From Prorocentrum cordatum (Eukaryota): 64,000 nt of DNA. A program made the translations under genes and the position numbers. Shown here piece by piece: positions 1-59,253 of the stretch. Location: the NCBI GenBank assembly GCA_963575745.1, contig CAUYUJ010000086.1, positions 1-64,000 of the forward strand, written 5' to 3'. Below the pieces are notes generated by a model. The model made no database searches and was not told the origin of the DNA. It was given only the letters and a program-made list of their open reading frames with translations. Position 1 is the first letter of the stretch; every line of letters begins with the position of its first letter.

Positions 1-6
1 TGTTGG

Positions 7-3000
7 GTGGGTCCGAGGTGTGTCGACCCAGCTTTGCTTACTGCGTACGACCCTCAGGTTACGAACTGTATGCTGTGGAAGCATGATGTCTGTGTGTGGA
101 AGCCGCCCAATCAGAGATTCCTCGGTGTGTCTCGGGACGTCGATGCGTTCTACCGATTCTGGCGCAAGACGTACCGGGTGGAACGGCAAAATGTGTCTGC
201 CCCGCGAGGTGTCCAGGATCCGCTGCTCCCTCCGCCTGTGCCTGTTTCGTCTCCTTCGGTTCCCGTGCCTTCGCCGTCGTCGGCTGGTGCTGCTTGGTGT
301 TTGCGCGTTCAAGATTCTGCGATTGCAGGGCGGCTCTCGGTTGTCGACTACGGGAGTGTCTTTGTCGGTTTGCCTCGGAAGTGTTTTCCTCTGTGCATTG
401 CTGCTTCTGGGGGCTCCGCATGGAACATTGCTGATGCCACTGCTTTTTTTGCTGAGCGTCTGAGCAATGATGTAGGCACTGGCATGGGCGGCGGAGTCGT
501 TGAAAAGGCTAATATGGATCTGGTGCTGCTGTGGCTTCAGATGCGCAGCGCAGGCTACTGGGTTTTTCGAGCGAAGGCTTCTGCGGATTTTTTTTCTGGG
601 GCGGTTGCAGGTCCATGGTGGCTCGGTGCGCCTGGCGCGGCGTGTGTCGGTGCGCTCCTCTGGCTCGAGCACGGTCACGTGGTGCGCATCGTGGACGACG
701 ATGGGGTTTTTCTTTCTGCCTCATTCTCAGCTGGGGTGTCTTCTGCGGAATCTGCGGACGCGCCGTGGCTGCGGTCCGTTGCAGGCGCGCCGAAAAAGAA
801 GGCAGCCGCGAAAAGCAAGCGAGGTGCGCATTTCCGAGGTGCGCAGAACCCAATTTCGATAGCGGCCGTTGCTGCGCGGCAGCGACGCGCGACTGGTGAG
901 GATGGGGCGCCGTCGTCGTCTGGCGAGGACATGCCAGTCATCCCGGGAGTCACCGTCGACGATGCCGATTCGGGCGATGCTGCGGGGGCGTCCGTGCTTC
1001 GTCGTCCTGCAGCTGCGGCCGCCACGCATGGCCGTGCGTCTGGGGACGAGAGCGATTCGGGTGAGGACATGCCGATGCTTCCAGGGGTTACGGTGGAAGA
1101 GGATGACGCGGGGGCTGCTCGGGCGCGATCGGACGCCGTCGCACCGCAGGCAGCGTCTGCGAGGCGCGCTCTTCGGGGCGCGGCTTCGGCCGCGGCGCCG
1201 CCGAGCGATTCTGATGGCGAGGAGATGCCTGTCATCCCTGGAGTGACCGTGGACGTCGGGGGTGCTGACGATGGTGCAAGCGATGGCAGCGGGCCGGCCG
1301 CGCGTCCGCGCGGCGCCCGGAGAGCGCGCCGGAAGCGCGGGGCCGCGGACGGGGTGCTTGCGTCCGAGGCAGAGTCCCGTCAGTTCCAGCCGGATTACGT
1401 GGACGAGGACCGCTGCAAAGGGCTGACGTGGGGGGGGGGCTGGGGGCGAGAGCAGTGCCGGTTTCGGCCGAAGACGGGGAGCGACGTGTGCGGGAAGTGC
1501 GCTCGATATGGGTGCCCGCACGGGCGCGTCAGGGGCCCGATTCCTGCAGGCGCGTTGGATAAGTTCAAGGAGTTCGCGCTGAAGGCGAACAAACCATCTA
1601 AGCAGTGGTACGCGCGGCACGCGATGTGGGACGTGGCGTCGAAGATGAAGCCTGAGCTGAAGTCCTTGTGTGAGGTGGGCGAGCACAAGCGATCTGTGTT
1701 AACGAACAGTGAGTACGAGCAGTGCCTCAAGCAAGTCCATGACAATCTCCGAATCCATAAGAACCATGGCCGTTCTGGCTTCGTATACGAGAAGGGGGCA
1801 GGGGTGCGGACACTGCAGGATCGCTGCGGGGAGGGAATTACTCGGTTCGGATCGGAGAGGGAGGCCTACAATGGGCAGCAGGGGGGGAAGGTGTTCATGT
1901 GGTACAGCAGGGCGGTCTTCAACAAGTACCTGGGGCAGCTGCAAGCTTCCGAAATGGATTGTAGCGAGAAGGACTGCGTGGAGGCGTTGCGGTTGACCAG
2001 CGAGGAGATTCGGCGGTACCCAATGAAGCAGCAGTATCTGAGACCGTACGCAGGCCCGCAGTGCTATCCGCACATTGATCCGCGTTCGAAGGAGAACAGG
2101 CTGCACGCGAACGAGAAAATGGGGCATGCGCCCGGAGAGGATCCGCAGGGGGGCGGCGACGGCGGCGCCAGGCCCGATGCGTGCGGGGGAGCCGACGACG
2201 TGGCGTCGCACTTGTTCTGTATGCGGAATTGGGCGCAGTGCGATCGGTGCCACTGCTGGCGCCTGCTTCTGCCTGCCTGCGCTGCGCGCGCGCGAGGGGA
2301 TGAGTACTACAGGGTTCGCGACACCGGCTTGGATTGGGAGGGGTGGTTGACGGGGGCGGCGCATCGGTGTGCGGCGGCGGCTGGTGCGTCGAGAGACCAG
2401 GGCGCTGCGCTCGGTGGGGGGGGCGGCGACGCCGTGGAGGGTGCGATGCAGCAGGGCGGCGGCGCGGACGAGGGCGGCGGTGGGGGGGAGATGCGCGGCG
2501 GCGCTCGGAAGCGGCGCCTGGGGCGGAAGACGTCCGAGGCGGAGGCTGCCGAGCCCGCCGCGGTGCGCGGCGGGGCGCGGAAGCGGCGGTTGGGGCGCAA
2601 GACGTCCGAGGCGGAGGCCGCTGCGAGCGGAGCGGGGCGCAGGGGCGCGGAGGAGGGGCGAGCTGGCGAGGGGGGCGCGGAGGTGCCGGAGGCGCGCCGG
2701 GGGCGCCGGAGACTCGAGCGCAAGACGTCCGCCGAAGAAGGGGCCGAAGCGGGCGGCGCGGTTCGCGGAGCCGTGGACGAGGAGGGCGGTGGCGACGAGA
2801 CATTCGTCGGTATGGCGGAGTTATCGGCCCCCGATTGCGACGACGAGCGTTCTGCGTCAGATCATGAGTGCGCCTCGGAAGGAGACGCGGCACCGCTGCC
2901 GCGCGAGGTGCGCAGCGCGCTCGATGCGGAGCTGGTGCGTTTCGCTGGTGCTGGGCCGCCGACGGAGGCAGACTGGGCAGAGGCTCGAGCGGCCGAGGAG

Positions 3001-6000
3001 GGGCGCGGGAGCGCGCCGCGCCGCGCGGGATTGTCGCGAACCGGAGGTGGGGATGCGCGGGCGTGGGCAGTTGCGTCCGTGCCCCACCTGAAGGACAAGC
3101 GGATGGTGGCATTGGTCGGTGCCGTCCGCGAGTACCTGGTGTTGTGCCGTCAGTGCGACCGGGGTAGTTTTCGGATCCAGGGGTCGGTCGGCGATAAGTT
3201 GTGGGTTGCGCTGATGGAGCCGGGGCGGCCAGGACAGTTCGGGCGCGTGCTGCTGGAGCTGGAGGATCGCGCGCGCGGTCGTGGGCCGAGCGCGGAGCGT
3301 TCGTCTTGGGAGGCGATAGCCGTGGAGGAGGATTTCCGTCGTCGCTCGGAGTGGCCCCGAGTGCGTTTCGAGTGTAGTATGTTGCTGACGCCGGTCGTGT
3401 CCGAGAGCGGCGGGACGCAGTGGCGGGCGGTGCGGTGCTGCGATGAGCCGGACGGGGGCGATGCGGACGATTTCCAGGCTCTGTGGCAGCGCGAGTCGCG
3501 GGTCGCGGCCGTCTTCGCAGCGAACGTGGTTCGGGATGACGACGTGGTCGTGTTGCCTGTGGAGCGGCCTGCCGGGTGGACGGAGCCCGCGCACATGGCG
3601 GGGGCGTGGTGGCGGGGCCAGGGCCCCCGGGAGCGCAGAGCAGAGGAGGGGGAGAATCCCGGGCGCGTCTGGGTGGGCCAGCTGCAGGAGGACGCCGGCG
3701 TGGCGGGGCTGCTGCCCGAGGGCGGCGCGGGCGAGCGCACTGCGAAAGAAGGGCTCGACGCGCTGCAGCAGGCCGGTCAGGGAGTGCGGGGGGCGGGTCG
3801 CGCGGGTCGTGGCCGGGGGCGCCGAGCGAAGAAGCGCGGTCGGTACGGGAATGATTTGCGGGCCGTTATTCGGACCAGATGGGCGCCTGGGAGGTCGTCG
3901 GAAGGTGCCGGCCCGGGCGTCGCGGAGTCGTTTGTGTTTGGATCAGCGCCAGAATCGGAGCATTGGGAGATTCGTGTGGAGGCGCGTTTGCGCGAGCGCT
4001 GCGGAGGGCGTGTAGACCAACGAGCGCGTGTTGCTGCAGGGGACGTTCACCAGAAGTGCATGCTGCTGGCGCTGAAGACGGTGCCGCTGCGCGTGGCGAA
4101 GTATGACGTGCAGCTGCGCGCTGCGTCCGTGCGGGCCGTGCAGGCGGCGCAGGCGATCCTGACGCGCATGGTGAAGTTCACGTGCCACGAGTGCCAGGAG
4201 CGGTTCCCGGCGTTCCACCCTGCCTTCGAGCCGCCGGACCAGCTGGCGGATGAGATGTTGCTGCTGCGTCGCGGCGGGGACGGGCTGGCTGCGTGCAGCG
4301 CGGAGGTGGCCGAGTGGGACGAGGTGCCGCCGAGCGACCCGCCGGATGGCTTCGCCCTGGAGTGCGCGGGCGTGTGCATGCGGTGTAGGCGGGATCTGGA
4401 CAAGCAGGCGTCGGCCGCGCCCACGGAAGACGACCTGTATCAGGTGGTGGGTCTCCGCACCGCGCAGAATCACATGGACCCGTGCTTCCGGTTCCCCTCC
4501 GATGACCTGCGCGACCTGTTCGACCAGGCCACGCTCACGGAGAGCCTGCTCATTGCTCTGGACCACATGCAGGTGAATCTGGCCACCGTGTCTCGGACAG
4601 GGCTGCGCAAGTTCCGCAAGAACATCATCTCGTTCCCGCAGGATGTGGCCGGGTTCGCGCGGCGTCACGAGCTAATGAAGGGGTACCGCGTCGGGGATCG
4701 CGTGAACTCGGTGCGCGGACCTGGCGAGCGCCCCGACGACCCGCACCGCCCGGAGCGCATTGCCGCGGGGGGCACGGTCGAGGAGCGGCAGCGCTTCGGC
4801 GTGGACGTGTACGGGCGCCTGGTGTTTCCCGGTCGGGTCGCGGAGGTGCTGCTCAGTGGGGAAGTGATCATCGACTACGACCATGGCGGCTGGGGGAGGG
4901 AGCTTCAGGAGAACGTGGAGCCGCGGGTGATGCTGCCCTGGCACCCGAGGAAGGTGCCCTTCTGTCTGATGCTGCGGCGGAACGTTGGTTTCGGGAAGGA
5001 GGTGGTCGAGGGCCTGCACGTGCGCTGGCGCTACTGTGGGCACCTGCTGCGGGCGCTGTGCGCGTTCGCCGGCACGTGCGGGCCCTGGCGCCTGGGCGGC
5101 ACTGCGAATGAGCCCATGCACAAGTACTACGACCCGCGTTTGTTTGATGTGCTGCCGGACGACGACATCATCCGGTGCTATGCGCCGAAGGAGAGCGACC
5201 ACGGCGCCGTGCTGTCGGGGGACGAGGTGGGGGAAGCCGAGGGGCCGGGGCCGGTGACTCGGGCGGAGGCCATTGCCAGGGATACTGTTCCGTGTGGCGT
5301 CGACGTCGTCACGCCGCGGCAGTTCATTGCCGCGGGTTTCGACGTGCACTTCGTGGGGCCGCGTGATGAGGCTCAGCGAGGGGCGAGAGTCCGCGACGGC
5401 GACTGCGCACAGCGTGGCGACGAGGGCGGCCAGGACGCCGCGGGCGACGGTGGTGCGATGGAGGCAGATGAGGACCAGTTCGATGTCGGGGACGGAGACG
5501 AGGCCATGGCCGTCGATCACGATGTGTTCAGTGCTTGGCTCGAGAAGGCGCAGTTCAGGTACGGCGGGGCTTTGCAGCGATGGTGGGCGGGGCTGCAGCC
5601 GGAGGCGGAGGGTCATTTGGAGGGGCTGAAGTTTGGTGATGACGAGTCGACGGAGGACCTTTTCGGGCGCTTGCTGGACGCGGCGCGGGGGGAGAGCAAA
5701 GTGGTGGCCGTGCAGAGGGATCGGGTGCCCGTGGAGTGCGTGTGCGTCGATTTCCTCGTGCATTGGATGGGGCCGCGGGTCGGGGGGCCGTTCTCTGACC
5801 CGGGCGGGGGCGTGGCTCCAGAGGCGGTCCTGGACGATGTGATGCTGGAGTTGGCCATGGCCGGCAGGTTCGTGGGAGCTGCTCAGGACACGGATACGGG
5901 GTGCGTGGAGGAGAATTTGCCGGAGTTTGACGAGGACGAGGTGGTCGCGCGGACGGGAGAGCGGATGATTTACGGGTGGCCCGGCCAGAGTGACGACCCG

Positions 6001-9000
6001 ATTCCGGCGCGCTCTGTCGGTCGCTTCGCGAGGGCGTTCCCGTTGGAGTTCCCGATGGGCATCGGCGACCTCTTCGAGGACCGCCCTCGCCGGGTCTCCG
6101 TGCAGGAGTGGGTGCAGCTCCTGATGCGCTACCGCACCGGGCAGTTCGTTGGTGGTCCGCGTGGGCAGCGCGTGATGTGGGCTATGGTGAACGTGCTGCT
6201 CCTGAACGAGGCACGGGCGAAGGGCTTCGGCGTGTATCGGACCATGTGCAGGCGGGCGGGGCTCGCGGTTCAGGGCCCGAGTGTGATGACCAAGGGTGGG
6301 CTCAGGCAGATCTTGGAGAGCGAGGACCGTGTGCGGATCCTGGTGGGTCAGCTGGCGAACGTTGGGCGCGACGTGCCCTCGACCACGATGCATTGGTCCT
6401 ATGAGTCCAAGAACTTGCAGAGTACCGTGAAGCACCTGTCCTGGCACCCGCCCTGGGTCGAGGGCCCTCTGGCGGACGGCGCGGAGCATGTCGGCAGGCG
6501 GTTCCTGCGCGAGATGGACCTGCCGGCGGGGAACGGTCGGACTCAGCGCAGGCGGCCTCTCGTGCCGGATGTTGTCGGGCTCGGCCGGCACCCGTCCATC
6601 TGGTGGACGCAGAATCCGTTCTACAATGCCGCGTTTGACATTCTGCGCATGGGAGGAGGCCGGGGGGCGCGGGCGGCAGGGGAGCGCGCTCTCGGGGATT
6701 GGGTGGGTGACGGGCGAGAGGAGCGCTTTCGGTTCGCTCGGGACAACCCGGACCTGGTGGCGTACATGATGGCCCTGCGGGTGGAGCTGAACATGCGGAT
6801 GGTGATGCCCGCAGTGCTGCCGCACTCTGAGCAGTTCAAGTACATGGCCATGGCCAGGGCCGAGTGTGGCGCGGGAGGGAATTTGCACTACCACGGGTTC
6901 AGCGTGGGGTTGCCCGGCCCCGAGTCTGCGCGGGTGCGTGCGGACGTGGACGGGGAGGGGGACATGCTCCCGCCGAGCGTGACCAGCGACTTGGCGGTGT
7001 GCTTGCCATCGCTGGAGGCAGGGCCGATGGCGTGGCTCCAGCAGGAGCAGAAGCGGCGTGCCGCTGCTCTCGCAGCCCTGGAGCAGGTGCTGCGCGCGGC
7101 TGCCGGCCGGCCAGGCGCGCGTGCATCCAGGGGTCGTGAGGGTGAGGGTTCGGCGGCTTCAGGGTCTGGGAGTGAGGATGGCGCGGACGACGAGGAGGAG
7201 GATGAGTTCGTGGGCAGGGCTGATGCGCTGCTTGACGCGTTGGTGGATCACGGGTGGTTGGTGGTCGTGGATGTTGACGAGGGCGCGCGTGGTGGGGGAG
7301 GCGAACGAGATGTCGCGTTCGAGCGTGCGGGCCCAGAGATTGCGGCGCCCGTGGATGCGCCGGGAGAGAGTCCTGTGCAGGATGGTGCGGACGGTCATGG
7401 CGCAGATGGCGCCCGTGGTGGTCGGCCTGTTGGAGTTCCTGACGGGGCTCACCTGCAGCACTTGGCCGGTGATGGCGTTGATTTCGGTGTTTTGAAGCCA
7501 GAGCACTAGAACGTTTCGCTGCAGAGCGTTCTGGAGAAGCGGTTCCACGATTTCTTCGGGAATGTGGTTTCGGAGTGGAACCCTTGCTACGATGATGCGG
7601 GCGCGTGCCGGTACACGTGGGACGACGAGGTTGGCGCCGTCGATGTTGACGTGGAGATGGAAGACCAGGCTGCTGTCGAGACGTCGGAGGCCCGTGCGAT
7701 TCGGAGCGTGCCTGCGTCTGCGCCCGAGTGTTTGAACTTGCGGAAGGTCCTGGACGAGGCCTTTCAGTCCCAGGCAGCAGGGAAGTTGGACGTGCAGCCT
7801 GTTCGGAGACTGGTGTCCGCGCTGGTGAACAGGGTTGCGCGGCACACGAAGCATGGCATGGGCCCTCCGAAGCTCCGGGTTCATGCATGTGCTCGCGGAA
7901 AGGAGGGGTGCGTGTTCTGCCGGTATGATTTTCCGCGTGAGAGGTGGGGCCGCGTCGGGCCGAGACCGTTTCGGATGGAGAAGGGGCGCAGGGAGGGCCA
8001 CTGGCAGGCCGTGTTCCCGAGGAACGACCGGCTCTGCAACAGCTATGAGGAGCACGTGCTCCTGGCCAATATGGGGAACATCGATTGGCGCCCCGTCCTG
8101 AACCTGTGGGCCGTCGTGGAGTACGTCACGAAATACGCAACGAAGGCGCCCAAGGGTTCGCGGAAGATCAAGGAGGTGCTGGACAACGCCGTCAACGAGG
8201 TCTGCGCGTACGTTCCGGACGGCGAGGGCACCGACTTCCTCCGACGCTCGATCCAGAAGTTCTTCGCTCGGATGCTCGGGGAGCGGCATTATCATTGTTA
8301 CGAAGTGGCGCTGCCGGGGTTGCGCCTGCCGATGGTCTTGTCCATGATGCCCGTCGTGACCCTGAACACTACGGGTGCGCGTGCCCTGAGGCCTGCGTCC
8401 GCACTGCATAAGGAGCCGGAGGATGAGCCGGTCCACTGGGATAGCAAGGTGGACAAGTTCGACAAGCGCCTGGGGTTCGTGCGTCGCCAGCGGGCCGGAG
8501 GCCACGAGTCCATCACGGAGGAGGAGGTGCGCGATGTGTCACTTTTCGAGTTTTATTGGAAGTACGCCGTGTACCGCGGGAAGCTGAGGCGCGGGAACCC
8601 CGCGGTGTGCCTGCAGGTGACGCCCGGCTATAGCGCGGAGTGTGCGAACGTGGACCATGCCTGCCACGAGGCGTACGCGCGGGCGAACGTCATCGCGCAC
8701 TGGCGGCACATGCCGACGGCGGACCGCAAAGCCATGATCGAAGAAGAATTGCGGCGCGACGTGCGCCCTGTGCCGGAAGTTTGTATTGGGGCCACGGAGT
8801 TTGAGAGCGATGCCGGAGGCGATCGGTTCCTGGGAGTGCAGGACCTGTGGTTCAAGTCGGGGGGGAGGGTCTGGAGGGGCAGGGAAGATCGGTTCTGGGG
8901 GGACATGATGATGGAGATGCTCACGGATCCAATGCTCCGGCAGTGGGTGCCGGCGTGGGTCGTGGAGCAGTGCGAACGCGCGAATCCTTTCTACAAGGAG

Positions 9001-9159
9001 GTGTTGGGCGCCATCTTGGAGGGTGGTGGGGTTCGTAACAACCGCGAGCTGCTGAGGCGGACGCGGCGCGAGATGGTTCGTCGGCACCAGGCGCGGCAGC
9101 AGGGGCGCGACGCCAGGGGGGTGCGTTGCCGCGGGCGATGGGGTGGGGCAGGATTCTGA
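7..9159 (+). pseudogene. N-terminal region plus Rep (HUH endonuclease) portion of RepHel, with in-frame TAG at 7507-7509
   Basis: C-x2-C...C-x2-C then NHMDP and LTESLLIAL...KNIISFPQD (DUF6570-like, ~4177-4644). AFPLEFPMGIGD (Helitron_like_N-like, 6034-6069). Motif 1 PSIWWTQN (6592-6615), NPDLVA, and motif 2 RAECGAGGNLHYHG (HYH at 6886-6894). After the stop the same frame continues with CRYDFPR, RNDRLCNSY, NMGNIDW and motif 3 EYVTKYATK (8119-8145). True start codon uncertain. Confidence 0.85.
2227..2268 (+). other. CW-type zinc-finger-like motif (N-terminal half)
   Basis: NWAQCDRCHCWRLL matches the zf-CW opening W-x-Q-C-x2-C-x2-W-R. The second half is not adjacent; FECSML...CCDEP at ~3367-3450 might be it. 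Confidence 0.55.
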
Positions 9160-9599
9160 CGTCGGCTCGAGAGAGGGTGACGGTGGCAGAGAGAGCGATG
9201 CGGCGGAGTCGGGGGAGGACGTGGAGGAGCTGGTCGACAGACTCGTTCATAACGCCGACGACGATCCCAACGAGGAGTCTCCGGATGCTGTGCTGCGCGA
9301 CCCCCGGCCGGGGGAGGGTGCGGAGGGTGGTGCGGTTGGGGGGGAGGTGTCCGAGTGGGAGCTCCGCCCAGCAGACGAGCGCGGCAGCGAGGCGGGCCCC
9401 GCGGTGCAGGCGGCAGACGTGCGTATCGGGGATGTGGCGCGGGAAGACGCTCGCGGGAGGGTGCGTGTGAACCCGAAGGATTACAACTGGCTGGATAAAG
9501 CTCGCAAGTTGTCGACGGGGGAGAAGCAGCGCCTCGAGGGGCTCCGCGATGCCTGGTACGGCAAGGCCAACGTGGGCGACGGGGCAGAGGTCGTTTTGC

Positions 9600-11300
9600 G
9601 CGAAGACTTGGATCCCTGGCAGAAGTTTGCCCACGACATCGTTATGGATGCGCGTCATTCCGAGAAGGACCCGCTCCGCCTCATGGTCACGGGTGTTGCA
9701 GGCACGGGGAAGTCGCGCACGGTGCGTAGTTTTGTGGCGGCGAGGCGACAGAGGGCGCGTCAGACGGCTCCGCGGACCAGAATGGATCGGGTGCCGGGCC
9801 TCCGCGGTGGGATGCGGGAGGGAAGGCGCTCTCAGTCGGAGATGATGAGGAGGTGCGGAATTGCTGTTTGCTGGCTGCTCCGACAGGGTGCGCCTCGTTC
9901 CAGTTGAAGTATGGGGCGACTACTCTGCACAGGGCTTTCGGCGTTCCGGTGGGGTACTGCGGGCCTTGGAAGCAAAAGGGCGGTGAACGCTTCTTGCGGA
10001 CGCGGGACCGGTTGCGGCAGGCGAAGCTGTTTGTGGTGGATGAGATGAGTATGATCGGGCGGCAGATGTTGGGGAAGATCGAGTACAAGGTGCAGGACAC
10101 TCTGGGCACGGATGCGAAGTTTGCGGCACGCGGAGGAGGCGGAAAAGGAGGAAAGGGGAGGAAGATGGAGGAGGACGAGCCAGTGTATCTCGGCTGGAAG
10201 GATGTCGTGCTGGCAGGAGATCCGCAGCAGGCGCCGCCCATCGGCGACGATCCGTTGTATCGAATGGGCAAGTATGAGGGGCATGGGAAAAATAAGCCGA
10301 GGGGGGCGGTGCGCACTCCAGACGATGCGTGGAGCACGGAGAAGTTGGTGGCCACGGGCCAGTTTGTGCGCAATACGTTCCAGGACGTCGCCGTGCTACG
10401 GCGCGTGCACAGATGGAGTGGGAAGAAGGAGGGTCTGTCCGCCGAGCGGCAGGCGGAGTACCGGCGGGATGCCGAACGTTTTCTGGAGGTGACCAAAGGA
10501 ATGGCGCAGTGCACGTGGGACCAGTCGGATCATGCGTGGTTGAGGCGCCGGAACAGGTCGGTGCTGCAGATGACGAAGGAGGGCAGGGAGGAGCTCGCAG
10601 CGTTCGAGACGGCGCCGCTGCTGATGGATGGCAGGAAGGATCGGGCGTCGGGTGCCTGCGGCGCGGATAGGGTGAACCTGGAGAGGCTGTACCAGGTGGC
10701 GGCTGCCAGTGGCAAGCCCATTTCGTCTCTGCGCGCCTATCACAATTGGAAGGATAAAAGTAAATCTCGGCCGGAAGAGATGGCGGCCGACGATTTCCGA
10801 GGGATCGAGAACGAGCTTCACATGTGTGAAGGGGCGCGCGTGCTGCTGACGCAGAACTTGTGGGTCGAGGCGGGATTGATGAACGGGGCGATGGGCACGC
10901 TGCGCGGGTACATGTGGCCGGACGGGGCGGACCCGCACAACAGTGCGCGCCCGGATCTGCAGGCGCCCATTTGTGTTTTCGTCGAGTTCGACGACGTCGA
11001 TCTGGGAAAGGACGAGAATGGCGAGCCGCGGTCTTTCTTCAAGAACGATCCTGTGCGCAAGAACTGGGTGCCCATCTGGAGGCAGTCTGTATCGTCCACG
11101 ACGGAGGACGGCCTCGCGCGCGAGAACTACCCGCTGCAGCTGGCGTGGGCTTTGACGCACTGAAAGGCGCAGGGGATGACGTTGGCGAAAGTCCGCGTGC
11201 ACATGTCGGCGAAGACCGCGGCCGTCGCTGGGATCGGGTTCGTCGCAACGACGCGCGTCAGGCATCCGTGGGACTTGGTGTTCGAGGAAGACTTGCCGGA
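9600..11300 (+). pseudogene. Pif1-family (SF1B) helicase domain of RepHel, with a frameshift near 9830-9850 and in-frame TGA at 11161-11163
   Basis: Walker A GVAGTGKS (9692-9715), LLAAPTG...GATTLH, Walker B VVDEMSMIG (~10033-10059), GDPQQAPPI (10216-10242), GARVLLTQNL...GLMNG, YPLQLAWALTH*KAQGMTL and FVATTRV. Confidence 0.93.
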
Positions 11301-12929
11301 GTACGCGGACTTCATGCGGGACAGGCACACGACGGCGTTCCGGGAGCGCCGTCGGTTCGAGCTGCGGTTGGAGGCGCGCGCTTCGTCAACGTTGCGGAAG
11401 TATGGGTACTGCGAGGCGGTTTTGTGGACCGCAGAGGAGAGGTGTGCGGCGGGGAGATTGTTGGGCCGTCTCGAGACCGTCCGTGCGGCGCAGGCGGAGA
11501 GGCTCAGAGGTCTGAACAGAGTGGTGGATGATGACACTTGGCTCTGGGGTGAGGACGGCGCGCCGTGCGTGTCAGCGTTGGCTGAGGCTGTCGATGCCGA
11601 GGCGGGGGGTGATGACGTCGCGCGGCGGCGTCTGACCGCCGTGGCTGACAGGCTCCTGGACCGGAAGAGGGTGCGCGGTGTGACGTTGGAGGAACGGGAG
11701 GCCGCGCGGGAGCTGGCGGGTGGGGATGCAGAGGATTTCTATGGTGTTGACACGGTGGAAGAGTTGCGGGGGCGTTTGAGGGCTGCCGCTGCGCGGCTGT
11801 CGCGGGAGCGCCCAGACGACGACGGAGTGGAGTTGTTGGGCCGTGTCGCTGACATGATGGTGGATCGGTGGGTGGCGTGTGGGCGGTGGGATGGTCGCGT
11901 GTTCGATGTCGTGGAACCGAGCCTGGGCCCGCTGCACATGAGCGCTGTGAAGGAGGCCATGGGTTCGCTGGTGCCGCCGAGACTGCACGGGAGCTTGGAT
12001 AAGGCGGCCAGGAAGATGAAGGATGCGTTCGGGGATGTTCGCGGTGGCTGCGCGCTGCGGATGGACAAGTGGGTCGTGAACGTGCGGTCGGAGGGCGCTC
12101 TGGCGGAGGGCAGGCTGGAGCGTCAAGCGTTGGAGTTCTTCCTGAAGGTGGCGCGACAGCTGTGCTCAGGGTTAGACCTGCCGATGACTGTGGCCTTGGC
12201 AAAGGTGGGCGAGCACGTCGGCGCGGAGGAGAACCCAGAGCATTTTGCTCGGGTGGCGCACAACTGGACGAGCGTTTGGGACGCGAGCTGCGTCAGCGAT
12301 AAGAAGGAGTTGCTGATGGTTGCTGCCGTGGACGCTCTGAGCGTGTCTGGCGTTCCCCAGGATTGGATCTTCGTGCGCGTCCAGGCTGGTCGGGCGGGGA
12401 GGCGCTCGGGCGTGCCGAGTCTCTGACCGTGTGCGTGTACGATCGAGGCCGCAGGGAGGCGGTTGCAGGGCGAATCGCTCGGAATATCGACGCGCTGCTG
12501 CGGCCGATACAGGCCAGTGATGGGCGGCGCCCGACACCAGCGGTAGAGTTTGGGGAGGCGCCGCACGTTCGGGTGCCTTCGCAGAGGATCGCCGGCGCAC
12601 TCGGGCTCCTGCTGGGCCACGTTGGTCGCGGGGCCGGTGCCAGGGTGCTGGATGCGTCGGCGGAGTCGTTCGTGCCAGACGTGTGTCGTGCGTTGCGGGG
12701 CGCGTTCGCGTCTTTCCGCGCGGGCGTCGGCGCGCGGGGTGCGCGGGATGTCATGGAGTTGTTGCTCTCGGACCAGGTGTGCCGTGACGCTCTGGACCTC
12801 TTCGGCGTCGCCCCGCGCGCGGATGTGTCTGGGCCCAGTGCGGCGGGCGCGGGCCGGGCGATGGCGGGTGTGGTGGGGAGGGCCGTGGACGAGGCAGGCG
12901 AGGGAGAGGGCCTTGAGGGCGCATCGACG

Positions 12930-13670
12930 TTGTCGTTTGCGACGTGGAACATTGCTGGTGGGCATCGCGCTGCCGTGGCGCCGCATTCCTGGACCGCGCG
13001 GGATCAGCGCGCCGCGGTTCTTGGCGTGGTGCTCCGTTGGAGGCAGGCGCGCGGGTGTGACGTCGTTGCCTTGCAGGAGTGCGAGGGCGGGGGTGCGTAC
13101 GAGGAGCTGTCAGGGGAGTTTCAATTGGCGGGCGTTGCGCAGGCGCACGAGTCCAGGGGGTATGTGCATCTGTACGTCAGGCACGGTCTGCGGGCGGAAT
13201 CTGTGGCTGTGCCAGGGCAGGATCCGCGCGTGCTGCGCCGTGTCCAGGTGCCCGGAGACGGCGGCGCCGGCGGCGATGGGCACGTGCACGTGGCGGCGGC
13301 GCACCTGCCCACGGACGCGTCATGGGAACGGCGTCGTGCGATACTTGGGAAGATTGTGGCGAAGTGCGGGCACGAATGCCATCGGCTGCTCATCGTGGGC
13401 GACATGAACAGCACGGATGCGCAGGTGCAGCCGTGGAGCAGTTGCGTCTGAGGGACGCATGGTATGAGGGCCGATCCTGGGGTTGCCCCGGCAATAAATT
13501 CTTTTCGGGTCTCGGCGACAGGGGGGCTGTCGGCCAGAGACGTGACCGGGCGCTCTCTGGAGCGGATCTCTGGTCCGAGGTGCACTTGGTAGGGAAAGGG
13601 AAGGTGTTCTTCGAGGGTTCCGAGCTCCACATGTCCGACCACTATGGGCTGTTCGGGCACGTGCGTGCCC
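12930..13670 (+). pseudogene. EEP/apurinic-type endonuclease domain, frameshifted near 13430
   Basis: FATWNIAG (12936-12959), DVVALQE, AAAHLP and IVGDMN (~13392-13409) in one frame; LRDAW, RDR and SDHYG (13634-13648) in the next frame. This is the standard EEP motif order. Confidence 0.88.
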
Positions 13671-14074
13671 ACGCGCGCTTTGGATCTCGGGGGCAGAAGA
13701 CGAGGGCCGTGGCGCAGCGCGAGCGAGTGGTGCTGCAGGCGACGCGCGATCAGTCACAGAGACTGGAGGATGTGGAGGTTCAGAGTCGGTTACAGCGTGG
13801 TCGAGAGTCCGCGGCGCTGGCCCGGCAGCAGGCGCAGGAACGAGATCGAGAGGCGCACTTGCGGACGCAGCAGCGGGCTGCCGGCCGCCGACAGCGCCGT
13901 CGGGAACAAGCGATATCCGCAGCGTTCGGGCCACAGAGTTTGTTTGCTTTGGGTCGCCCGGTTCCGCCGCCGCCGAGCCCCTGCCCGCCTCCGCCGCCAC
14001 CGTGCCCGGCAGACATGTATGTCCCGAACGTGGCTGGCATTCGCGCGGCTTCGTTGGACAGCGTGCGGTGCGTG

Positions 14075-15012
14075 CCCGTCCGAGGGATGCCGCGGCCATG
14101 GCACACCTGCTACGTGGTCAGTGTGACGCAGCTGATGTTGCGGACGCCTGCCGTCTTGGAGTGGCTTCGATGGCATTCAGAGCAGCAGTGCGAGGACCGG
14201 GGCCCGGGGCGTTGTTGCGTGTGCGGGATGTGGGAGACGTACAACCAGTTGTGCTCGCGACGCTGGCAGCAGGGACCTGTGAGTGTGCTGCGGCGTACGA
14301 GCGTTGACTGCGACGACGATGCGATGGGGCGGCCGAGTGAGTTCAATGACCCGTGGCAGCAGCAGGATGTGTTTGCGTATTGGGGTAAGCTGATCGTGGC
14401 TGCGCGTGACGCAGAGATGTTGGCAGGTCGGTTTGCGCAGCGGGAACCCGATAGCATCCGCGCGGTGAATCTGCGGGTGACGTGCGTTGATCAGATGTTC
14501 GGGTTCGTCGTGGAGAAGCGGGAGAAGTGTGACGTGTGCTATTACGAGACTGTCGCGTACGAGGCTGAGGATGTGCTGAAGCTGCGTGTTCATGGGCGTC
14601 CAGGTGGGCCCTTGATGCTGCAGGAGTTGTACTGCGACTTTTGTGCTCCTGAAGATATCGAGAAGAGCTGCCCGGGGTGCTGCCGCGACGAGCACGACCG
14701 GGTTAAGCACGTCAGGCAGACGAGAGCCACTGGTGTGCCACAGGTTCTGGTGGTTCAATTGAGGAGGGGCTCCGAGGCGCGGGAGGCAGTGTGGGTGGAA
14801 GAGCAACTGAGGCTGCCAGGGCTTCCCCAGATGCTGTTGGTCGGTGTGGTTTACCATAATGGGCGGTCAGTTAATTGCGGCCATTACACGACTCTGTGCC
14901 GCGTTCATGATGGGAGGTACTTCTTGTTTGACGACGACGAGCCACCGCGCTTGATCCGAGACGAGCCGGCGCACATCAAGCAGAAGGAGGCGTACATGGC
15001 AGTGTATTGCCG
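14075..15012 (+). CDS. Ubiquitin-specific protease (peptidase C19/USP)-like domain, part of the transposon polyprotein
   Basis: Cys box GMPRPWHTCYVVSVTQ (14084-14131), QQQDVFAYW, Zn-ribbon pairs CDVC and CPGC, PQVLVVQLRR, His box GVVYHNGRSVNCGHYTTLC...YFLFDD (14843-14938) and terminal AYMAVY. The domain itself is uninterrupted. Confidence 0.85.
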
Positions 15013-16390
15013 CCTGGGCCGCGGTCAGGGGCAGGGCGCGGGCGCAGGTGCGACCGAGGTGGACGCTGCGCGTGAGGGGCAGGGCAGTGGCGGGAGTGGG
15101 CCGGGGGGCGGTGATGCGAGTGCGTCTGGTGGCGGCGGATGGGGCGGGGGTGGGGCTGTTGGTGGTGACGCCGACGGAGCGACGGAGCGCGAGGGGGGGA
15201 GTGGGGCGTCGGCGGCCCGAGGGAACGGGCGCGCGGGCGGCGTCGCTGGCGTTCGGGCCGGGGCTTCGGCGTCTGTTGGGTCGAGGGGTGAGCCTACGTC
15301 CGGCGGTGGAGTTGGTGCAGGGCCAGGCCGTGGAGGACGCAGGGAGGGCGTTGTCTCGGTTGCCGCCGCCGAGCCGCGTTCCGCGAGCAGGCGCCTGCGG
15401 AGGAAGTGCGCGTTTTCGACGTCAGGGGAGGGGCGCGCCGTCGATGGTCATGGTGCGGCTGGGCGGCGAGCGGTCACGACGAAGGGCAGGGCTTCGGGCG
15501 CAGCCGAGTCAAGGGGCGCGGCAGGCGCCCGCGACTTGACCGCTGGGGTTGGCGGGGGGGCGGTGTCTCCGAGGGAGGGGGGGGTCTCTGGCTCGCCTGG
15601 TGGCGCCGCTCCGCGTTCCGCCGCGCGGCGGGCACGGGAAAAGACGGCGACGCCACGCTCGGATGCAGGGGCGGCGGGTGGCGCGGCGGGCGCGGCTGGA
15701 GTCAGGGATGTCGGCGGGGAGCGCGACGTCGCTGGGCCAGGGCGCGTCCGAGGTGCTCGAGGGTCCGGGGGGGCGCGCGCGGGCGGCGGGGGTCTAGGTG
15801 GCGATGTGGCGTGCGCGAGTGTCGCGGGGGGGAAAGATGCGGCAGCGGTGGAGACGGTGCGGGTTTCAGCGTCGGGGAAACGAAAGGTGGAGCCTCGGTC
15901 AGAGGCGGAGGTACCCGCGGAGGAGCTCGGCGCGTTTGGCGGCGCGAGCTGCGCCTGGCCCCGTCGCGGTCGAGGAGGGGGCTGCCGCGGGCGAGGGCGC
16001 GTATATACGGGGGGGGGTACTGGTGCGCCCGAGGCGCGCGGAGCCGTCTGGACCGTCGAGTGGCGGCGGCGCCGCGCGAGTGGTGACAGGTTTCGGCGCG
16101 GGGAGGATCGAGAACTTGGCTGCGTTCCAGCGCAGCCGCGATTTGGGGGATGCGACGCGCGCGTCGCAGCGGGTCTCGGAGGGGGCCCGAGGGAGGTGCG
16201 TGGATATGCAGGGGAATGAGCTGGATCCGTCTGCGGGGTCCGCCTGGCATGCGGGTCGATAGGGCGGGGGGTGCGGTGGGAGCTGGGTGTTGAGGGGGGA
16301 AGAGTGGGGAAGCAAGACGGGGGGGAGAGCGGGTAAATCAGGGCAAGGCTGTGCTGCGAGGTTCGGCTCCTCCCCCCTCAAGTCTTTTCT

Positions 16391-19300
16391 CTCCGCTGGC
16401 GCTCCGTGAGGGCGAAGTGGCTGGAGCGGAGGGAGGGCTGGCCCCGTAGTGGGGCGGTGCCTCCCCCCTCCGGAGCGCCAGCGAGGAGGGGGGTGCGCGT
16501 GGATGAAGGGCTGGAACTCTTTGTAGCGGTGGCGCCGATCAAGTGGTGGATGGTTCCGAAGGGATCGATGATTGGAGGGGCCTGGGGAGGGTCTCGGGTA
16601 TGCCGGGAAATGAGTTGGATCCGTCGGCGTGGTTGTCGGAGTTCGCGAGGGCGGAGTGGTTGGAGTGGAGGGGCGGCTGGCCCCGAAATTGTGCGGCGCC
16701 TTCCCCCTCCGGAGCGCCGGAAGGGGGTGTGGTGGGTGGGGGGGGGGCTCTGTGTGCCTGTCTGTGTGTCTGTGTGTCTATGTCTCTATGTGTCTATGTA
16801 TCTGTGTGTCTGTGTGTCTGTGTGTCTGTGTTTTTGCGTCTGTGTGTCTGCGTGTCAGTGTGTCAGTGTGTCTGTGTATCTGTTTGTGTGTGTGTGTGTG
16901 TCTGTGTGTCTGTCTGTCTGGGTGTTTGTGTGTCTGTGTGCCTGTGTGTCTATGGTCAGGAGGAAAAAAACACAGACGCAATTAATCGTCGCTTCCATAG
17001 AACATATGGGAAAATGTGGGGAGTGGGATGGAAGACAAAAGCACAGAAAATATGGGAACATATGGGGATTTGTTTAATTTGTGTGTATTCATTTGTGTGT
17101 CCTGGGGCCCCTTCATTTTTGCCTGCGTGTCTGTGTGTCCTTGTGTCTGCGTGTCTGTGTGTTGTTGTGTCTGCGTGTCTGCGTGTCTGTGTGTCCGCGT
17201 GTCTGTGTGTCCGTGTGTCTTGTGTGTCTGTGTGTCGGTGTGTCTGTGACTCTGGTGCTCTGTGTGTCTGTGTGCTTGAGTGTCTGTGTCTCTGTGTGTC
17301 TGTGTATTTGTGTGTCTGTATGTCTGCGTGTCTGCGTGTCTGTGTGTCTTCGTGTCTGTGTGTCTGTATGTCCGTGTGTCTGTGTGTCTGTGTGTCTGTG
17401 TGTCTGTGTGTCTGTTTGTGTGTGTGTCTGTGTGTCTGTGTGTCTGTGTGTCTGTGTGTCTGTGTGTCTGTGTGTCTGTGTGTCTGTGTGTCTGTGTGTC
17501 GGTGTGTCTGTGTGTCTGTGACTGTGTGTCTGAGTGTCCGTGTGTATTTTGTGTCTGTATGGCCGTGTGTCTGTCTGTATGTGTGTGTGGTTGTCTGTGT
17601 GTCCGTGTGTCCGTGTGTCCGTGTGTCTGTGTGTCTATGTGTCTGTCTGTCTCTCGGTATGTCTGTCTGTCCGTTTGTCTGTCTGTGTGTCTGTGTGTGA
17701 GTGTTTCTGTGTGTCTGTGTGTCTGTGTGTCTGTGTGCCTGTGTTTCTGTCTTTCTGTCTTTCTGTGTGTCTGTGCGTCTGTGCTGCTGTGTGTCTGTGT
17801 GTTTGTGTGTCTGTGTGTCAGTGTGTCAGTGTGTCTGTGTGTCTGCGTGTCTCTGTGTCTGTGTTTCTGTGTTTCAGTGTGTCAGTGTGTCTGTGTCTCT
17901 GTGTGCCTGTGTGTCTGTGTGTCTGTGTGTCTGTGCGTCTGTGTGTCTGGGTGTCTGGGTGACCGTGTGTCTGTGTGTCTGTGTGTCTGTGTGTCTGTGT
18001 GTCTGTGTGTCTGTGTGTCTGTGTGTCTTTTTTTTTGCGTCCGTGTGTCTGTGTGTCAGTGTGGCAGTGTGTCCGTGTAACTTTTTGTCTGCGTGTCGGT
18101 GTGTCTGTCTGTCTGTGTGTCTGTGTGCCTGTGTGCTTTTGTGCCTGCGTGTCTGTGTGTCCCTTTGTCTGTGTGTCTGTGTGTGTTGGTGTTTCTGCGT
18201 GTCTGCGTGTGCTTGTGTGTCTGTGTGTCTGTGTGTCTGTGTGTCTGTGTGTCTGTGTGTCTGTGTGTCTGAGTGTCTGTGTGTCTGTGTGTCTGTGTGT
18301 CTGGTGCTGTGTGTGTCGGTGTTTTTGAGTGTCTGTGTGTCTGTGTGTGTGTATTTGTGTGTCTGTGTGTCTGCGTGTATGCGTGTCTTTTTGTCTGTGT
18401 GTCTGTGTGTCTGTGTGTCTGTGTGTCTGTGTGTCTGTGTGTCTATGTGTCTGTGTGCCTGTGTGTCTGTGTGTCCGTGTGTATGTGTGTCTGTGAGTCT
18501 GTGTGTCTGTGTATCTGTCTCTCTGTCTTTCTGTTTGTCTGTGTGTCTGTTTGTCCGTGTGTCTGTGTGCCTGAGTGTCCGTGTGTCTGTGTGTCTGTGT
18601 GTCTGTGTTTCTGTGGGTCTGTGTGTCCGTGTGTCTGTGTGTCTGTTTGTCTGTGTGTCCCTGTGCCTCTGTGTCAGTCTTCCTGTCATTCTTTGTGTCC
18701 TGTGTCTGTGTGTTTGTGTATCTGTGTGTCTGGTTGCTTGTGTGTCTGTGGGTCCGTGTGTCAGTGTGTCTGTGTGTCTGTGTTTCTGTGTGCCAGTGTG
18801 TCAATTTGTCAGTGTGTCAGTGTGTCTGTGTGTCTGTGTGTCTATGTGTCTGTGTGTCTGGGTGTCTGGGTGTCAGTCTGGCAGTGTGTCCGTGTGTCTG
18901 TGTGCCTGTGTGTCTGTGTATCTGTGTGTCTGGTTGTCTGTGTGTCTGGGTGTCTGTGTGGTTGTGTGTCAGTGTGTCTGTGTGTGTGTGTGTCCGTGTG
19001 TCTGTGTGTCTGCATGTCCGTGTGTCCGTGTGTCCGTGTGTCTGTCTGTCTGTGTGTCTGTGTGTCTGTGTGTCTGTGTGTCTGTGTGTCTGTGTGTTTC
19101 TGTTTTGGTGTGTCTGTGTGTCTGTGTGTTGGTGTCTGTGTGTCCGTGTGTCCGTGTGTCTGTGTGTCTGTGTGTCTGTGTGTCTGTGTGTCTGTGTGTC
19201 TGTGTGTCTGTGTGTCCGTGTGTCTGTGTGTATGTGTGTGTGTGTCTGTCTGTCTGTGTGTCGGTGTGTCTGTGTGTCTGTGTGTCTGTGTCTGTGTGTC

Positions 19301-22300: not shown

Positions 22301-22597
22301 GTGTGTCTGTGTATTTGTGTGTCTGTATGGCTGTGCGTCTGTGTGTCTCCGTGTCTGTGTTTCTGTGTGTCTGTTTGTCTGTGTGTCTGTGTGTCTGTGT
22401 GTCTATGTGTCCGTGTGTCTCTGTGTCTGTGTGTCTGTGGGTCTGTGGGTCTGTGTGTCTGTTTGTCCGTGTGTCTGTGTGTCTCTATGGCCGTATGTCT
22501 GTCTGTCTGTGTGAGAGTTTGTCCGTGTGTCTGTGTGTCCGTGTGTCTGTGTGTCTGTGTGTCTGTGTGTCTGTGGGTCTTTGTGTCTGTGTGTCTA

Positions 22598-22632
<35 letters not shown>

Positions 22633-24462
22633 ATGTGTGTCTGTGTGTCTGTGTGTCTGTGTGTCTGTGTGTCTGTGAGTCAGTGTGTCTGTGTGTCTGT
22701 TTGTATGTGTGCCTGTGTTTCTGTCTGGGTGTCTTCCTGTGTGTCTGTGTGTTTGTGTGGCCGTGTCTGTGTGTCTCTGTGTCTGTGAGTCTGTGTGTCT
22801 TTGTGTTTGTGTCTCTGTGTGTCTGCGTGTCTGTGTTTCTGTGTGTCAGTGTGTCAGTGTGTCTGTGTCTCTGTGTGTCTGTGTGTCTGTGTGTCTGTGC
22901 ATCTGTGTGTCTGGTTGTTTCTGTGTCTGTGTGTCTGTGTGTCTGTGCGTCTGTGTGTCTGTGTGTCTGTTTCTTTTTTGCGTCTGTGTGTCTGGGTGTC
23001 AGCGTGTCAGTGTGTCGGTGTATTTGTTTGTGTGTGTGTCTGTGTGTCAGTATGTCTGTGTGTCTGTGTGCCTGTGTGCCTTTGTGCCTGCGTGTCTGTG
23101 TGTCCGTGTGTCTGTGTGTCTGTGTGCGTGTATGTGGTGCCTGTGTTTCTGTGTGTCTGTGTTTCTGTGTGTCTGTGTGTCTGAGTGTCTGTGTGTCTGT
23201 GTGTCTGGTGCTGTGTGTGTCAGTGTGCTTGAGTGTCTGTGTGTCTGTGTGTCTTTGTATTTGTGTGTCTGTATGTCTGTGTGTCTGTGTGTCTGCGTGT
23301 CTGTGTGTCTGTGTGTCTGTGTGTCTGTGTGTCTGTGTGTCTGTGTGTCTGTGTGTCTTTGTGTCTGTGTGCCTGTGTGCCTGTGTTTCTGTCTTTCTGT
23401 CTTTTCCGTGTCTGTGTTCCTGTGTGTCTGTGTGTCTGTGTGTCCGTGAACCTGAGCGTCCGGTTGTCTGTGCGTCTGTGTGTCTGTGGGTCTGTGGGTC
23501 TCTGTGTCTGTGTGTCTGTGTGTCTGTGTGTCTGTGTGTCCCTGTGCCTGTGTGTGTTTGTCTGCCTGTCTTTGTGCCCGTGTGTTTTTGTGTCTGTGTA
23601 TCTGTGTGTGTGGTGGCCTGTGTGTCTGTGTGTCCGTGTGTCCGTGTGTCAGTGTGGCTGTTTGTTTGTGTTTCTGTGTGTCAGTGTGTCAATGTGTCAG
23701 TGTGTCAGTGTGTTTGTGTGTCTATGTGTCTGTGTGTCTGTGTGTCTTGGTGTCTGAGTGTCAGTCTGTCAGTGTGTCCGCGTGTCTGTGTGTCCTGTGT
23801 GTCTGTGTGTCTGTGCATCTGTGTGTCTGGTTGTTTCTGTGTCTGTGTGTCTGTGTGTTTGCGTGTCTGTGTGTCCGTGTGCGTGTCCGTGTGGGTGTGT
23901 GTCTGCGTGACCGCGTGTCCGTGTGTCTGTTTGTCTGTGTGTCTGTGTGTCTGTGTGTCTGTGTGTCTGTGTGTCTGTGTGTCTGTGTGTCTGTGTGTTT
24001 TTGTGTTTGTGTGTTTGTGTGTCTGTGTGTTGGTGTCTGTGTTCTGTGTGTCCGTGGGTCTGTGTGCCTGTGTGTCTGTGTGTTTGTGTGTCTGTGTGTC
24101 CGTGTGTCTGTGTGTATGTGTGTCTGTGTGTCTGTGTGTCTTTGTGTCTGTGTGTCTGTGTGTCTGTGTGTCTGTGTGTTTGGGTTTTGTGTGTCTGTAT
24201 GTCCGTGTGTCTTTTGTGTCCGTGTGTCCGTGTCTGTGTTTTTTGCATGGCTGTGTGTTTGTGTGTCCGCGTGTCTGTGTGTCTGAGTATCTGCGTGTCT
24301 GGATGTCTGTGTGTCTGTGTGACTGGTTGGCTGTGTGTCTGTGTATCCTTGTGTCTGCGTGTCTGTGTGTCCGTGTGTCTGCGTGTCCGTCTGTCTGTGT
24401 GTCTGTGTGTCTGTCTGCCTGTGGATCTGTCTGTGATGTCTTTCTGTGCGTCTGTGTGTGTG

Positions 24463-24517
<55 letters not shown>

Positions 24518-27331: not shown

Positions 27332-27366
<35 letters not shown>

Positions 27367-30343: not shown

Positions 30344-30390
<47 letters not shown>

Positions 30391-30419
30391 GTCTGTCTGT
30401 CGGTCTGTCTGTCTGTCCG

Positions 30420-30473
<54 letters not shown>

Positions 30474-59153: not shown

Positions 59154-59253
59154 NNNNNNNNNNNNNNNNNNNNNNNNNNNNNNNNNNNNNNNNNNNNNNN
59201 NNNNNNNNNNNNNNNNNNNNNNNNNNNNNNNNNNNNNNNNNNNNNNNNNNNNN
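59154..59253. other. Assembly gap (100 N)
   Basis: Run of N. Confidence 1.

Follow-up and report, generated by a model that had tools for sequence, protein, structure and literature searches.

A probable Helitron-like rolling-circle element with TDP2-like and USP-fold domains in one degraded reading frame of Prorocentrum cordatum

The window analyzed here comprises 64,000 nucleotides of the dinoflagellate Prorocentrum cordatum (positions 1 to 64,000 of the forward strand of contig CAUYUJ010000086.1, assembly GCA_963575745.1), and its positions 1–16262 hold, on the plus strand, a single degraded reading frame that is open at the 5′ end, where it meets the edge of the window, closes with a stop codon at 16260–16262, and amounts to 5,408 codons when read through. 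Its modules are, from 5′ to 3′, a stretch weakly matched by DUF6570, a Rep of the HUH/two-tyrosine type, a Pif1 helicase, a middle region, an EEP domain, and a USP domain (Table 1). A preliminary description of this DNA, made from its letters alone, had reported a protein of ~5,400 amino acids with HUH Rep, Pif1, EEP, and USP motifs collinear on one strand and joined by simple stops or frameshifts. The length was reproduced, the order was recovered from Pfam matches and from the HUH and tyrosine motifs in the translation, and the joins were resolved into two stop codons and five frameshifts. We consider that the region is probably a pseudogenised copy of a multi-copy Helitron-like rolling-circle element with a single open reading frame (ORF), which carries a TDP2-like EEP domain and a USP-fold domain. 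The observation made in the preliminary description is confirmed by our analysis, and its interpretation is partly supported.

The interruptions were located by aligning P0004, an uninterrupted relative, with the window by tblastn (82–91% identity). Pfam matches over the curated cut-offs were obtained on seven pieces of the window for PIF1 (4.1e-8), Exo_endo_phos (7.1e-11), and UCH (2.5e-13). The G+C content is 63–72% in the element region, as against 47–60% in the 16–64 kb part of the window, and self-comparison of the window revealed no second copy of the element, only one 47-nt match. Comparison with P0044 suggests that the 5′ part missing from the ORF may amount to some tens of codons only.

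Intact copies with the same domain order were found among environmental sequences. With the EEP-USP part as the query, we recovered one 90%-identity cluster, whose members include P0002 (1,351 amino acids), P0006 (2,003 amino acids), and P0004. The last is an unbroken ORF of 3,586 amino acids on a 15,804-nt contig, ~90% identical to the window, and it reads without a stop from a point before the HUH motif, across Pif1, EEP, and USP, as far as the C-terminus shared with the window, in agreement with the earlier proposal that the four modules form one polyprotein. The same cluster holds a 79-amino-acid fragment from Pyramimonas sp. in the transcriptome-derived EukProt set, which is not evidence of transcription, and no RNA run is listed among the 20 public runs in which part of the element occurs, although X18–X20 might be RNA. 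The fragment hints weakly at a green algal host, as do the mainly chlorophyte neighbors of a GT61 ORF in the window; beyond a preprint's remark on DUF6570, mentioned below, no finding from the sequences points to a dinoflagellate. When the Rep region of P0004 was used as the query, with the search limited to proteins of 1,972–6,276 amino acids, 26 giant proteins were returned from ENA, JGI, Logan, and NCBI metagenome assemblies (2,131–5,493 amino acids, 30–62% identity), the cluster members of which reach 6,067 amino acids (P0063, on a 19,188-nt contig with less than 1 kb outside the single ORF). When segments of P0004 were placed on 63 proteins of at least 2,000 amino acids, the EEP segment was present in 25 of the 26 giant representatives and the USP segment in 23 of the 26, always after Pif1; the order of Rep, Pif1, a middle region of ~540 amino acids, EEP, and USP was constant across the mapped proteins, down to 26–30% identity in the USP region. 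One lineage, P0037, departs from this pattern: it combines DUF6570 with Rep and Pif1 but has neither an EEP nor a USP segment. In a phmmer search of 1.84 billion cluster representatives, the Rep region of the window (with the TAG read as X) matched 890 proteins at E ≤ 1e-3 and 108 at E ≤ 1e-30, mostly short fragments. Judged from the contig sizes, the element measures about 16–20 kb, and its protein has roughly 5,400–6,000 amino acids.

The modules also share a history. The FastTree phylogeny of the Rep-helicase (RepHel) part has 12 of 23 splits in common with that of the EEP domain and 14 of 21 with that of the USP domain, 9 of the 13 strongly supported RepHel splits are found again in the USP tree, and pairwise identities are correlated between modules, with the exception of Pif1 vs USP. 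The kept domain order and the common splits show an old fusion rather than a nested insertion: EEP and USP were joined to RepHel a single time, early, and then passed on with it. The preliminary description had allowed that other copies might show the EEP/USP part as a separate insertion or gene, and these results contradict that outcome. In its general form, this alternative would derive EEP-USP from a host gene that had been captured, or from a distinct element lying within or beside a RepHel element, with incidental collinearity. It would accord with the frequent capture of genes by Helitrons, with the placement of UCH in an ORF apart from RepHel in the HELIANO report (PMC11417382), and with the P0037 lineage, which has Rep and Pif1 without the two downstream domains. 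However, Rep-to-USP ORFs are unbroken in P0004 and in the 26 giant proteins, the order persists at low identity, and the module trees share splits; a single capture may have occurred, but at the root of the family. We regard capture or nesting as the least probable of the explanations considered here.

The Rep assignment starts from two short motifs, GNLHYHG at 6886–6894 for the HUH site and YVTKYATK at 8122–8136 for the two tyrosines, both read in the window translation. Both sites are invariant columns of the family alignment, with the HUH histidines kept in all 23 sequences that cover the site and both Rep tyrosines kept in 28 of 28. P0142 (29.9 bits) and P0143 (30.7 bits), which are close relatives of the P0037 Rep, pass the Helitron_like_N cut-off of 28.9 with a match that stops at the HUH motif, and the HUH stretch of the window aligns to P0143 with 40% identity over 155 residues (E 3e-19). 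The link of the window to Helitron_like_N is transitive, because the window aligns to P0143 and it is P0143 that passes the Pfam cut-off. The DUF6570-like stretch, weak in the window, is over the cut-off in the relatives P0108 (24.9), P0037 (28.8), and P0157 (39.8) and sub-threshold in several others; this domain is described as a marker of the group HLE2, upstream of Rep, in the HELIANO report (PMC11417382) and as a dinoflagellate-transposon domain in a preprint. Downstream of Rep in the same ORF, the Pif1 helicase is matched by PIF1 at E 8.4e-10 in P0004, the family profile matches PDB Pif1 structures at 1.7e-22, and all 28 sequences retain the Lys of Walker A and the Asp-Glu of Walker B. 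The middle region gave no usable match in the Protein Atlas.

These features also bear on the possibility that the region is no transposon at all and belongs instead to a cellular gene family with many copies, or to a virus-like element that became integrated. The giant ORFs fill whole metagenome contigs, and the element is identified here by its protein rather than by termini or insertion polymorphism, as such an origin would allow. On the other hand, the fusion of an HUH-Y2 Rep to Pif1 with a DUF6570 stretch is the HLE2 signature in the HELIANO report (PMC11417382), thousands of diverged contig variants and decayed copies exist, no other viral hallmark was seen, and the single ORF of P0063 leaves less than 1 kb of its contig. 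A gene family or virus-like element is therefore very improbable in our judgment.

For the EEP domain, an alignment of ten EEP segments was turned into a profile, with which all PDB sequences were searched. TDP2 accounts for each of the 13 top-scoring distinct sequences (1.2e-11 to 1.5e-6), and the best match aligns profile positions 4–240 with chain residues 9–256, end to end. TDP2 is followed by nocturnin (7e-6, N-terminal part only), beta-hemolysin (1e-4), and ExoIII/apurinic endonuclease (APE; 0.019–2), and the 35 matches obtained at E up to 10 include no long interspersed nuclear element (LINE) endonuclease. In the HMMER alignment, the nearly invariant “SW” of the family is aligned with the “TWD” of TDP2, and the Trp is kept. 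Searched singly against PDB, an EEP sequence gave nothing relevant, and P0004 gave no EEP match. The confident AlphaFold model of the domain (predicted local distance difference test score, pLDDT, 87.9; predicted template modeling score, pTM, 0.89) retrieved TDP2 at Foldseek ranks 1–13 with ~20% identity, with the LINE-1 endonuclease first appearing at rank 39 (12%), and an exhaustive VIA-align comparison placed TDP2 at the top (Z 22.0), above LINE endonucleases (19–20) and AP endonucleases (17–18). It is the sequence profile that discriminates TDP2 from other EEP families, and the structure simply agrees. All 27 sequences, the broken copy of the window among them, retain the catalytic N, E, D, D, and H, and 26 of 27 retain a second Asn. 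The nearest relatives of the domain are, on its profile, TDP2 enzymes, which are 5′-tyrosyl-DNA phosphodiesterases, and not AP or LINE endonucleases, and it may have their activity. Its likeness to TDP2 (PDB 5ino, 4gyz, 4fva) comprises the full-length profile match (E 1e-11), the top structural neighbor, all EEP catalytic residues, and the Trp of “TWD”; it differs in sitting inside a transposase polyprotein, in its ~20% identity, and in having no detected UBA domain.

This result does not sustain the labels “Helentron” and “AP endonuclease” used in the preliminary description. Helentron endonucleases match Pfam Exo_endo_phos_2 and are closest to CR1 LINE endonucleases (PMC4067079), whereas Exo_endo_phos_2 (PF14529) found no match in 21 family proteins (13 scanned at E up to 0.1 and 8 at E up to 0.01). 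Since Table S11 of HELIANO labels both Pfam EEP models “EN” (PMC11417382), “Exo_endo_phos” in Helitron-like elements covers more than one thing.

The USP domain of the window scores 50.6 bits against UCH (cut-off 23.9), the family profile matches USP36, Ubp8, USP46, and USP12 at about 1e-22 to 1e-16, and zinc-ribbon cysteines are present; the domain has a genuine USP fold. Among the 25 aligned sequences with the domain (24 relatives and the window copy), the catalytic Cys/His pair is kept in 14, the window copy being one of them. P0031 has a second canonical USP (amino acids 3828–4161, Cys box GNSCF, His box SGHY) downstream of an ancestral USP without catalytic residues; it was the only case, as Pfam detected no extra deubiquitinase in the other lineages with a lost pair. 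The preliminary description had considered that the element might process its own polyprotein. No conserved Gly-Gly occurs at the inter-domain linkers, such pairs being found only inside domains and once in the tail, although poor linker alignment makes this a weak negative; there is therefore no support for polyprotein processing by the USP, and the 11 USP regions without Cys/His point the same way.

Both domains enter into the alternative of a Helentron-type element, in which the EEP would be an AP-type endonuclease that nicks the target, a role proposed for it in Helentrons, and the USP an active protease acting on the polyprotein or on host ubiquitin signaling. The placement of the EEP after RepHel in one ORF is as in Helentrons (PMC4067079), the EEP fold is common to the LINE endonucleases with their Z of 19–20, both USP residues, Cys and His, are retained in the copy of the window, and Helentron-encoded VTD deubiquitinases are reported as active (PMC9741609). 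Nevertheless, the EEP profile leads to TDP2 at 1e-11, with APE/ExoIII at 0.02–2 and LINE endonucleases missing among its matches; Exo_endo_phos_2 is unmatched in the family, no Gly-Gly is conserved at domain boundaries, and Cys/His is missing in 11 of the 25 USP regions. We consider this reading unlikely.

A Helitron-like element with a TDP2-like and a USP-fold domain, as we prefer to read the region, can be compared with published systems. It resembles HLE2 (Helitron2/Helentron; PMC11417382; Thomas et al., 2014, PMC4067079) in the HUH/two-tyrosine Rep followed by Pif1 in one ORF, in the DUF6570-like stretch upstream of Rep (below the Pfam cut-off in the window), in the presence of an EEP fold, which follows the helicase as it does in Helentrons, and in having a deubiquitinase-type domain aboard, comparable to OTU, VTD, and UCH in Helitron-like elements. 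It differs in a Rep so divergent that Pfam Helitron_like_N misses it, in an ORF that is 2–3 times longer at 5,400–6,000 amino acids, in an EEP that is TDP2-like rather than CR1-LINE/APE-like, and in a USP fused in frame after the EEP. HELIANO (2024) counts UCH among 20 domains with a stable presence in Helitron-like elements, almost exclusively in HLE2; it describes UCH as occupying an ORF other than that of RepHel and as occurring chiefly in elements of lungfish and axolotl (PMC11417382), and its Table S11 names the domains without giving species or architecture for UCH. The preliminary description did not know a C-terminal USP as a standard Helitron module; the occurrence of UCH in elements of this kind had already been published. 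The Helentron VTD and OTU deubiquitinases (PMC9741609) likewise combine a rolling-circle transposase polyprotein with a ubiquitin-protease domain; the VTD domains are active deubiquitinases, the OTU activity was not tested there, and the authors suggest that transposition proteins are thereby kept from being degraded (Erven et al., 2022, PMC9741609). The domain described here differs from them in its USP/C19 fold, in its C-terminal vs N-terminal position, and in the loss of catalytic residues in 11 of 25 sequences. A literature search, with Repbase and Dfam outside it, found no link of a Helitron or HUH endonuclease with TDP2, and for a Helitron with Exo_endo_phos and UCH it gave only HELIANO and a camel transposon survey.

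As a specific mechanism, it is possible, though we put it forward tentatively, that the TDP2-like and USP domains handle a covalent Rep-DNA adduct. HUH-Y2 Reps cut DNA via a 5′-phosphotyrosyl link, and TDP2 hydrolyses that bond. In eukaryotic cells, ubiquitin marks DNA-protein crosslinks for proteolysis, followed by TDP2-type clean-up, and picornavirus VPg and hepatitis B polymerase are examples of viral proteins that host TDP2 takes off genome ends. In the proposed scheme, Rep would nick the end of the element, whereupon its tyrosine would become joined to the 5′ phosphate, and Pif1 would unwind the strand. The TDP2-like domain would hydrolyse the 5′-phosphotyrosyl bond between Rep and DNA, whether as the last step of the reaction or to dispose of adducts stuck at a dead end, and the USP domain might remove or bind ubiquitin attached to the transposase while it is joined to DNA, or to host factors close by. 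This could shield the transposase from ubiquitin-dependent DNA-protein crosslink repair and delay or steer host repair. That the EEP active site is so strictly conserved would fit an essential enzymatic step, and the patchy loss of the USP active site would fit a helper role that is partly non-catalytic.

It is rather doubtful, but conceivable, that this is the first transposon with its own 5′-tyrosyl-DNA phosphodiesterase, which together with the USP module would make a built-in adduct-handling kit; if true, it would be a transposon counterpart of the viruses that borrow host TDP2. The covalent 5′-phosphotyrosyl-DNA state is common to every HUH transposase and replication protein, and its resolution or protection in the eukaryotic nucleus has been little studied. 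That the EEP residues are kept in all 27 sequences while the USP decays in some branches points to an enzymatic step outside current Helitron models. In addition, the family is widespread, mainly in marine samples, and is missed by the standard Rep model, so that surveys of transposons in algae and plankton may count too few of its members.

Several observations weigh against the reading as a Helitron-like element with these two functions. Of the Pfam models for the modules named in the preliminary description, PIF1, Exo_endo_phos, and UCH were matched, but Helitron_like_N (PF14214) was not, either in the window at E up to 0.01 or in P0004; the best direct matches in the family are at E 0.011 (P0012) and 0.038 (P0037), hence the transitive link. 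A comparison of P0004 with PDB gave no sequence match to the Helraiser structure, and the Rep model is poor (pLDDT 54.8, best Foldseek E 1.5), too poor for a test of the fold. Neither terminus is defined, since the window does not reach the 5′ end and offers no more than a hairpin as a candidate for the 3′ end. For HLE2, insertion between T and T without target-site duplication would be expected. Concerning co-inheritance, the pairwise identities of Pif1 and USP correlate with an r of 0.14, which was reached by 114 of 1000 permutations and is not significant. In structural terms, TDP2 is tied (<1 Z) with 3mpr and 3g6s, bacterial EEP proteins without assigned function, and all EEP folds score within ~5 Z. 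No UBA domain was detected in the element protein, whereas cellular TDP2 carries an N-terminal ubiquitin-binding UBA domain. With the USP pair lost in 11 of 25 sequences, deubiquitination cannot be essential in every lineage. Separately, a nanovirus Rep at Foldseek rank 26 with the Rep model (E 5.7) was discarded as no evidence.

Public sequencing runs give a picture of the copies at large. Part of the element is found in 20 runs from 14 studies, none with more than 0.47 of the sampled words, and most of them are marine or seawater metagenomes. Run X3 gave 9,946 contig pieces that align with the element, of which 4,148 are at ≥99% identity, 3,862 at 95–99%, and 1,936 at 90–95%, and this spread is the picture of a diverged multi-copy repeat; the depths sum over many contigs and copies and thus give no copy number and cannot show the window's particular copy. 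Frame-restoring indels occur in public-run contigs at four of the five frameshifts (+T after 9842, +G after 12395, +GCAG after 13426, and −1 at 15913). In X3, however, depth is mostly with the window allele, the insertion accounting for 83.3/738.5 at 12395 and 52.8/389.5 at 13426; therefore, the frameshifts at 12395 and 13426 are real variants in many copies and not just assembly noise.

The frame-restoring indels are what would be expected if the frame breaks were assembly errors and the window copy were intact and autonomous. We find this quite improbable: the X3 depth favors the window allele at the two sites, these two frameshifts exist in independent short-read contigs, the TAG and TGA breaks are base substitutions, and the contigs, being sums over many copies, cannot show the window's copy. 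In all four runs aligned with the element, the contig depth over the first ~560 bases of the ORF is far below that of the remainder (in X3, 4 vs 259–1,100), with a rise at ~690–860, which could be due to a divergent N-terminus or to 5′-truncated copies.

Table 1. Features of the element and its 3′ flank in the window.
Feature	Position	Strand	Remarks
N-terminal ~1,984 amino acids without known fold	1..5952	+	Blocks conserved vs relatives at ~445-780, 1363-2355 (Cys-rich), 3997-5952
DUF6570-like stretch	4468..4656	+	E 0.0094, 16.8 bits vs cut-off 24.3; weak, below Pfam cut-off
Rep region	5953..8655	+	HUH and Tyr-x3-Tyr, separated by ~400-amino-acid insert, partly low-complexity
Pif1-type superfamily 1 (SF1) helicase	9640..11300	+	Walker A ~9690-9715, frame 2; broken by 9844-9862 frameshift and TGA 11161-11163
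Conserved middle region, ~540 amino acids	11300..12914	+	Contains frameshift 12384-12399
TDP2-like EEP domain	12915..13664	+	All catalytic residues kept; split by frameshift 13427-13430
USP (C19) domain	14054..15014	+	Cys box HTCY, His box GHYT, DDD motif
C-terminal tail	15015..16262	+	Gly/Ala/Arg-rich, low-complexity
ORF piece	1-7506	+	Frame 1; 2,502 amino acids, 5′ open
ORF piece	7510-9156	+	Frame 1
ORF piece	9056-9904	+	Frame 2
ORF piece	9730-11160	+	Frame 1
ORF piece	11164-12423	+	Frame 1
ORF piece	12303-13448	+	Frame 3
ORF piece	13061-16216	+	Frame 2
ORF piece	to stop 16260-16262	+	Frame 3
In-frame TAG	7507-7509	+	Glu in P0004; base substitution
Frameshift, frame 1 to frame 2	9114-9128	+	tblastn with P0004
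Frameshift in Pif1 region	9844-9862	+	tblastn with P0004
In-frame TGA in Pif1 region	11161-11163	+	Trp in P0004; base substitution
Frameshift in middle region	12384-12399	+	tblastn with P0004
Frameshift splitting EEP domain	13427-13430	+	tblastn with P0004
Frameshift in C-terminal tail	15916-15954	+	tblastn with P0004
3′ untranslated region	16263..16758	+	Imperfect hairpin and degenerate second copy of hairpin unit
(TGTCTGTG)n/(TG)n microsatellite, ~13.7 kb	16759..30523	+	Directly after 3′ region; AT skew near -0.86, extreme strand bias

The 3′ region contains a candidate hairpin of ~95 nt, imperfect, at 16389–16488, with a folding energy of −35.8 kcal/mol as single-stranded DNA (z −4.58, 0 of 200 shuffles), and a degenerate second hairpin unit lies 239 nt downstream of the first. 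In runs X3 and X18, but not in X2 and X9, depth peaks in the bin with the 3′ region. An exact 21-mer scan of JGI metagenome contigs with the 3′ unit gave nine loci, none of which encodes a family protein, and the one true relative among them is L008 (88.7% over 115 nt); on this otherwise unrelated contig, the 3′ unit is also flanked by a TG microsatellite. DINE-1/Helentron relatives have microsatellite-plus-hairpin ends (PMC4067079), and the candidate 3′ hairpin with its adjoining microsatellite recalls these ends, a likeness that is only suggestive.

In the N-terminal part of the ORF, the 1,984 amino acids upstream of Rep gave no PDB sequence match at E up to 1. A motif, GEDMP(V/M)(I/L)PGVTV(D/E), occurs three times in low-complexity N-terminal sequence at 900–1300 of the window (amino acids ~300–430), and the Cys-rich N-terminal block (window amino acids 455–539) is found again after the USP in P0124 (amino acids 4900–4984) and P0027 (amino acids 3687–3760). 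Farther downstream, there is a tandem repeat at 31801–32451 with a period of 177 nt, 3.7 copies, and 73% matches, and a run of 100 N at 59154–59253 marks an assembly gap. An uninterrupted ORF of 430 amino acids at 46992–48281 on the plus strand matches Glyco_transf_61 (GT61; 3.4e-10), the only Pfam match among 14 large ORFs scanned at 44–64 kb, and its nearest Atlas clusters are commonest in Chlorophyta.

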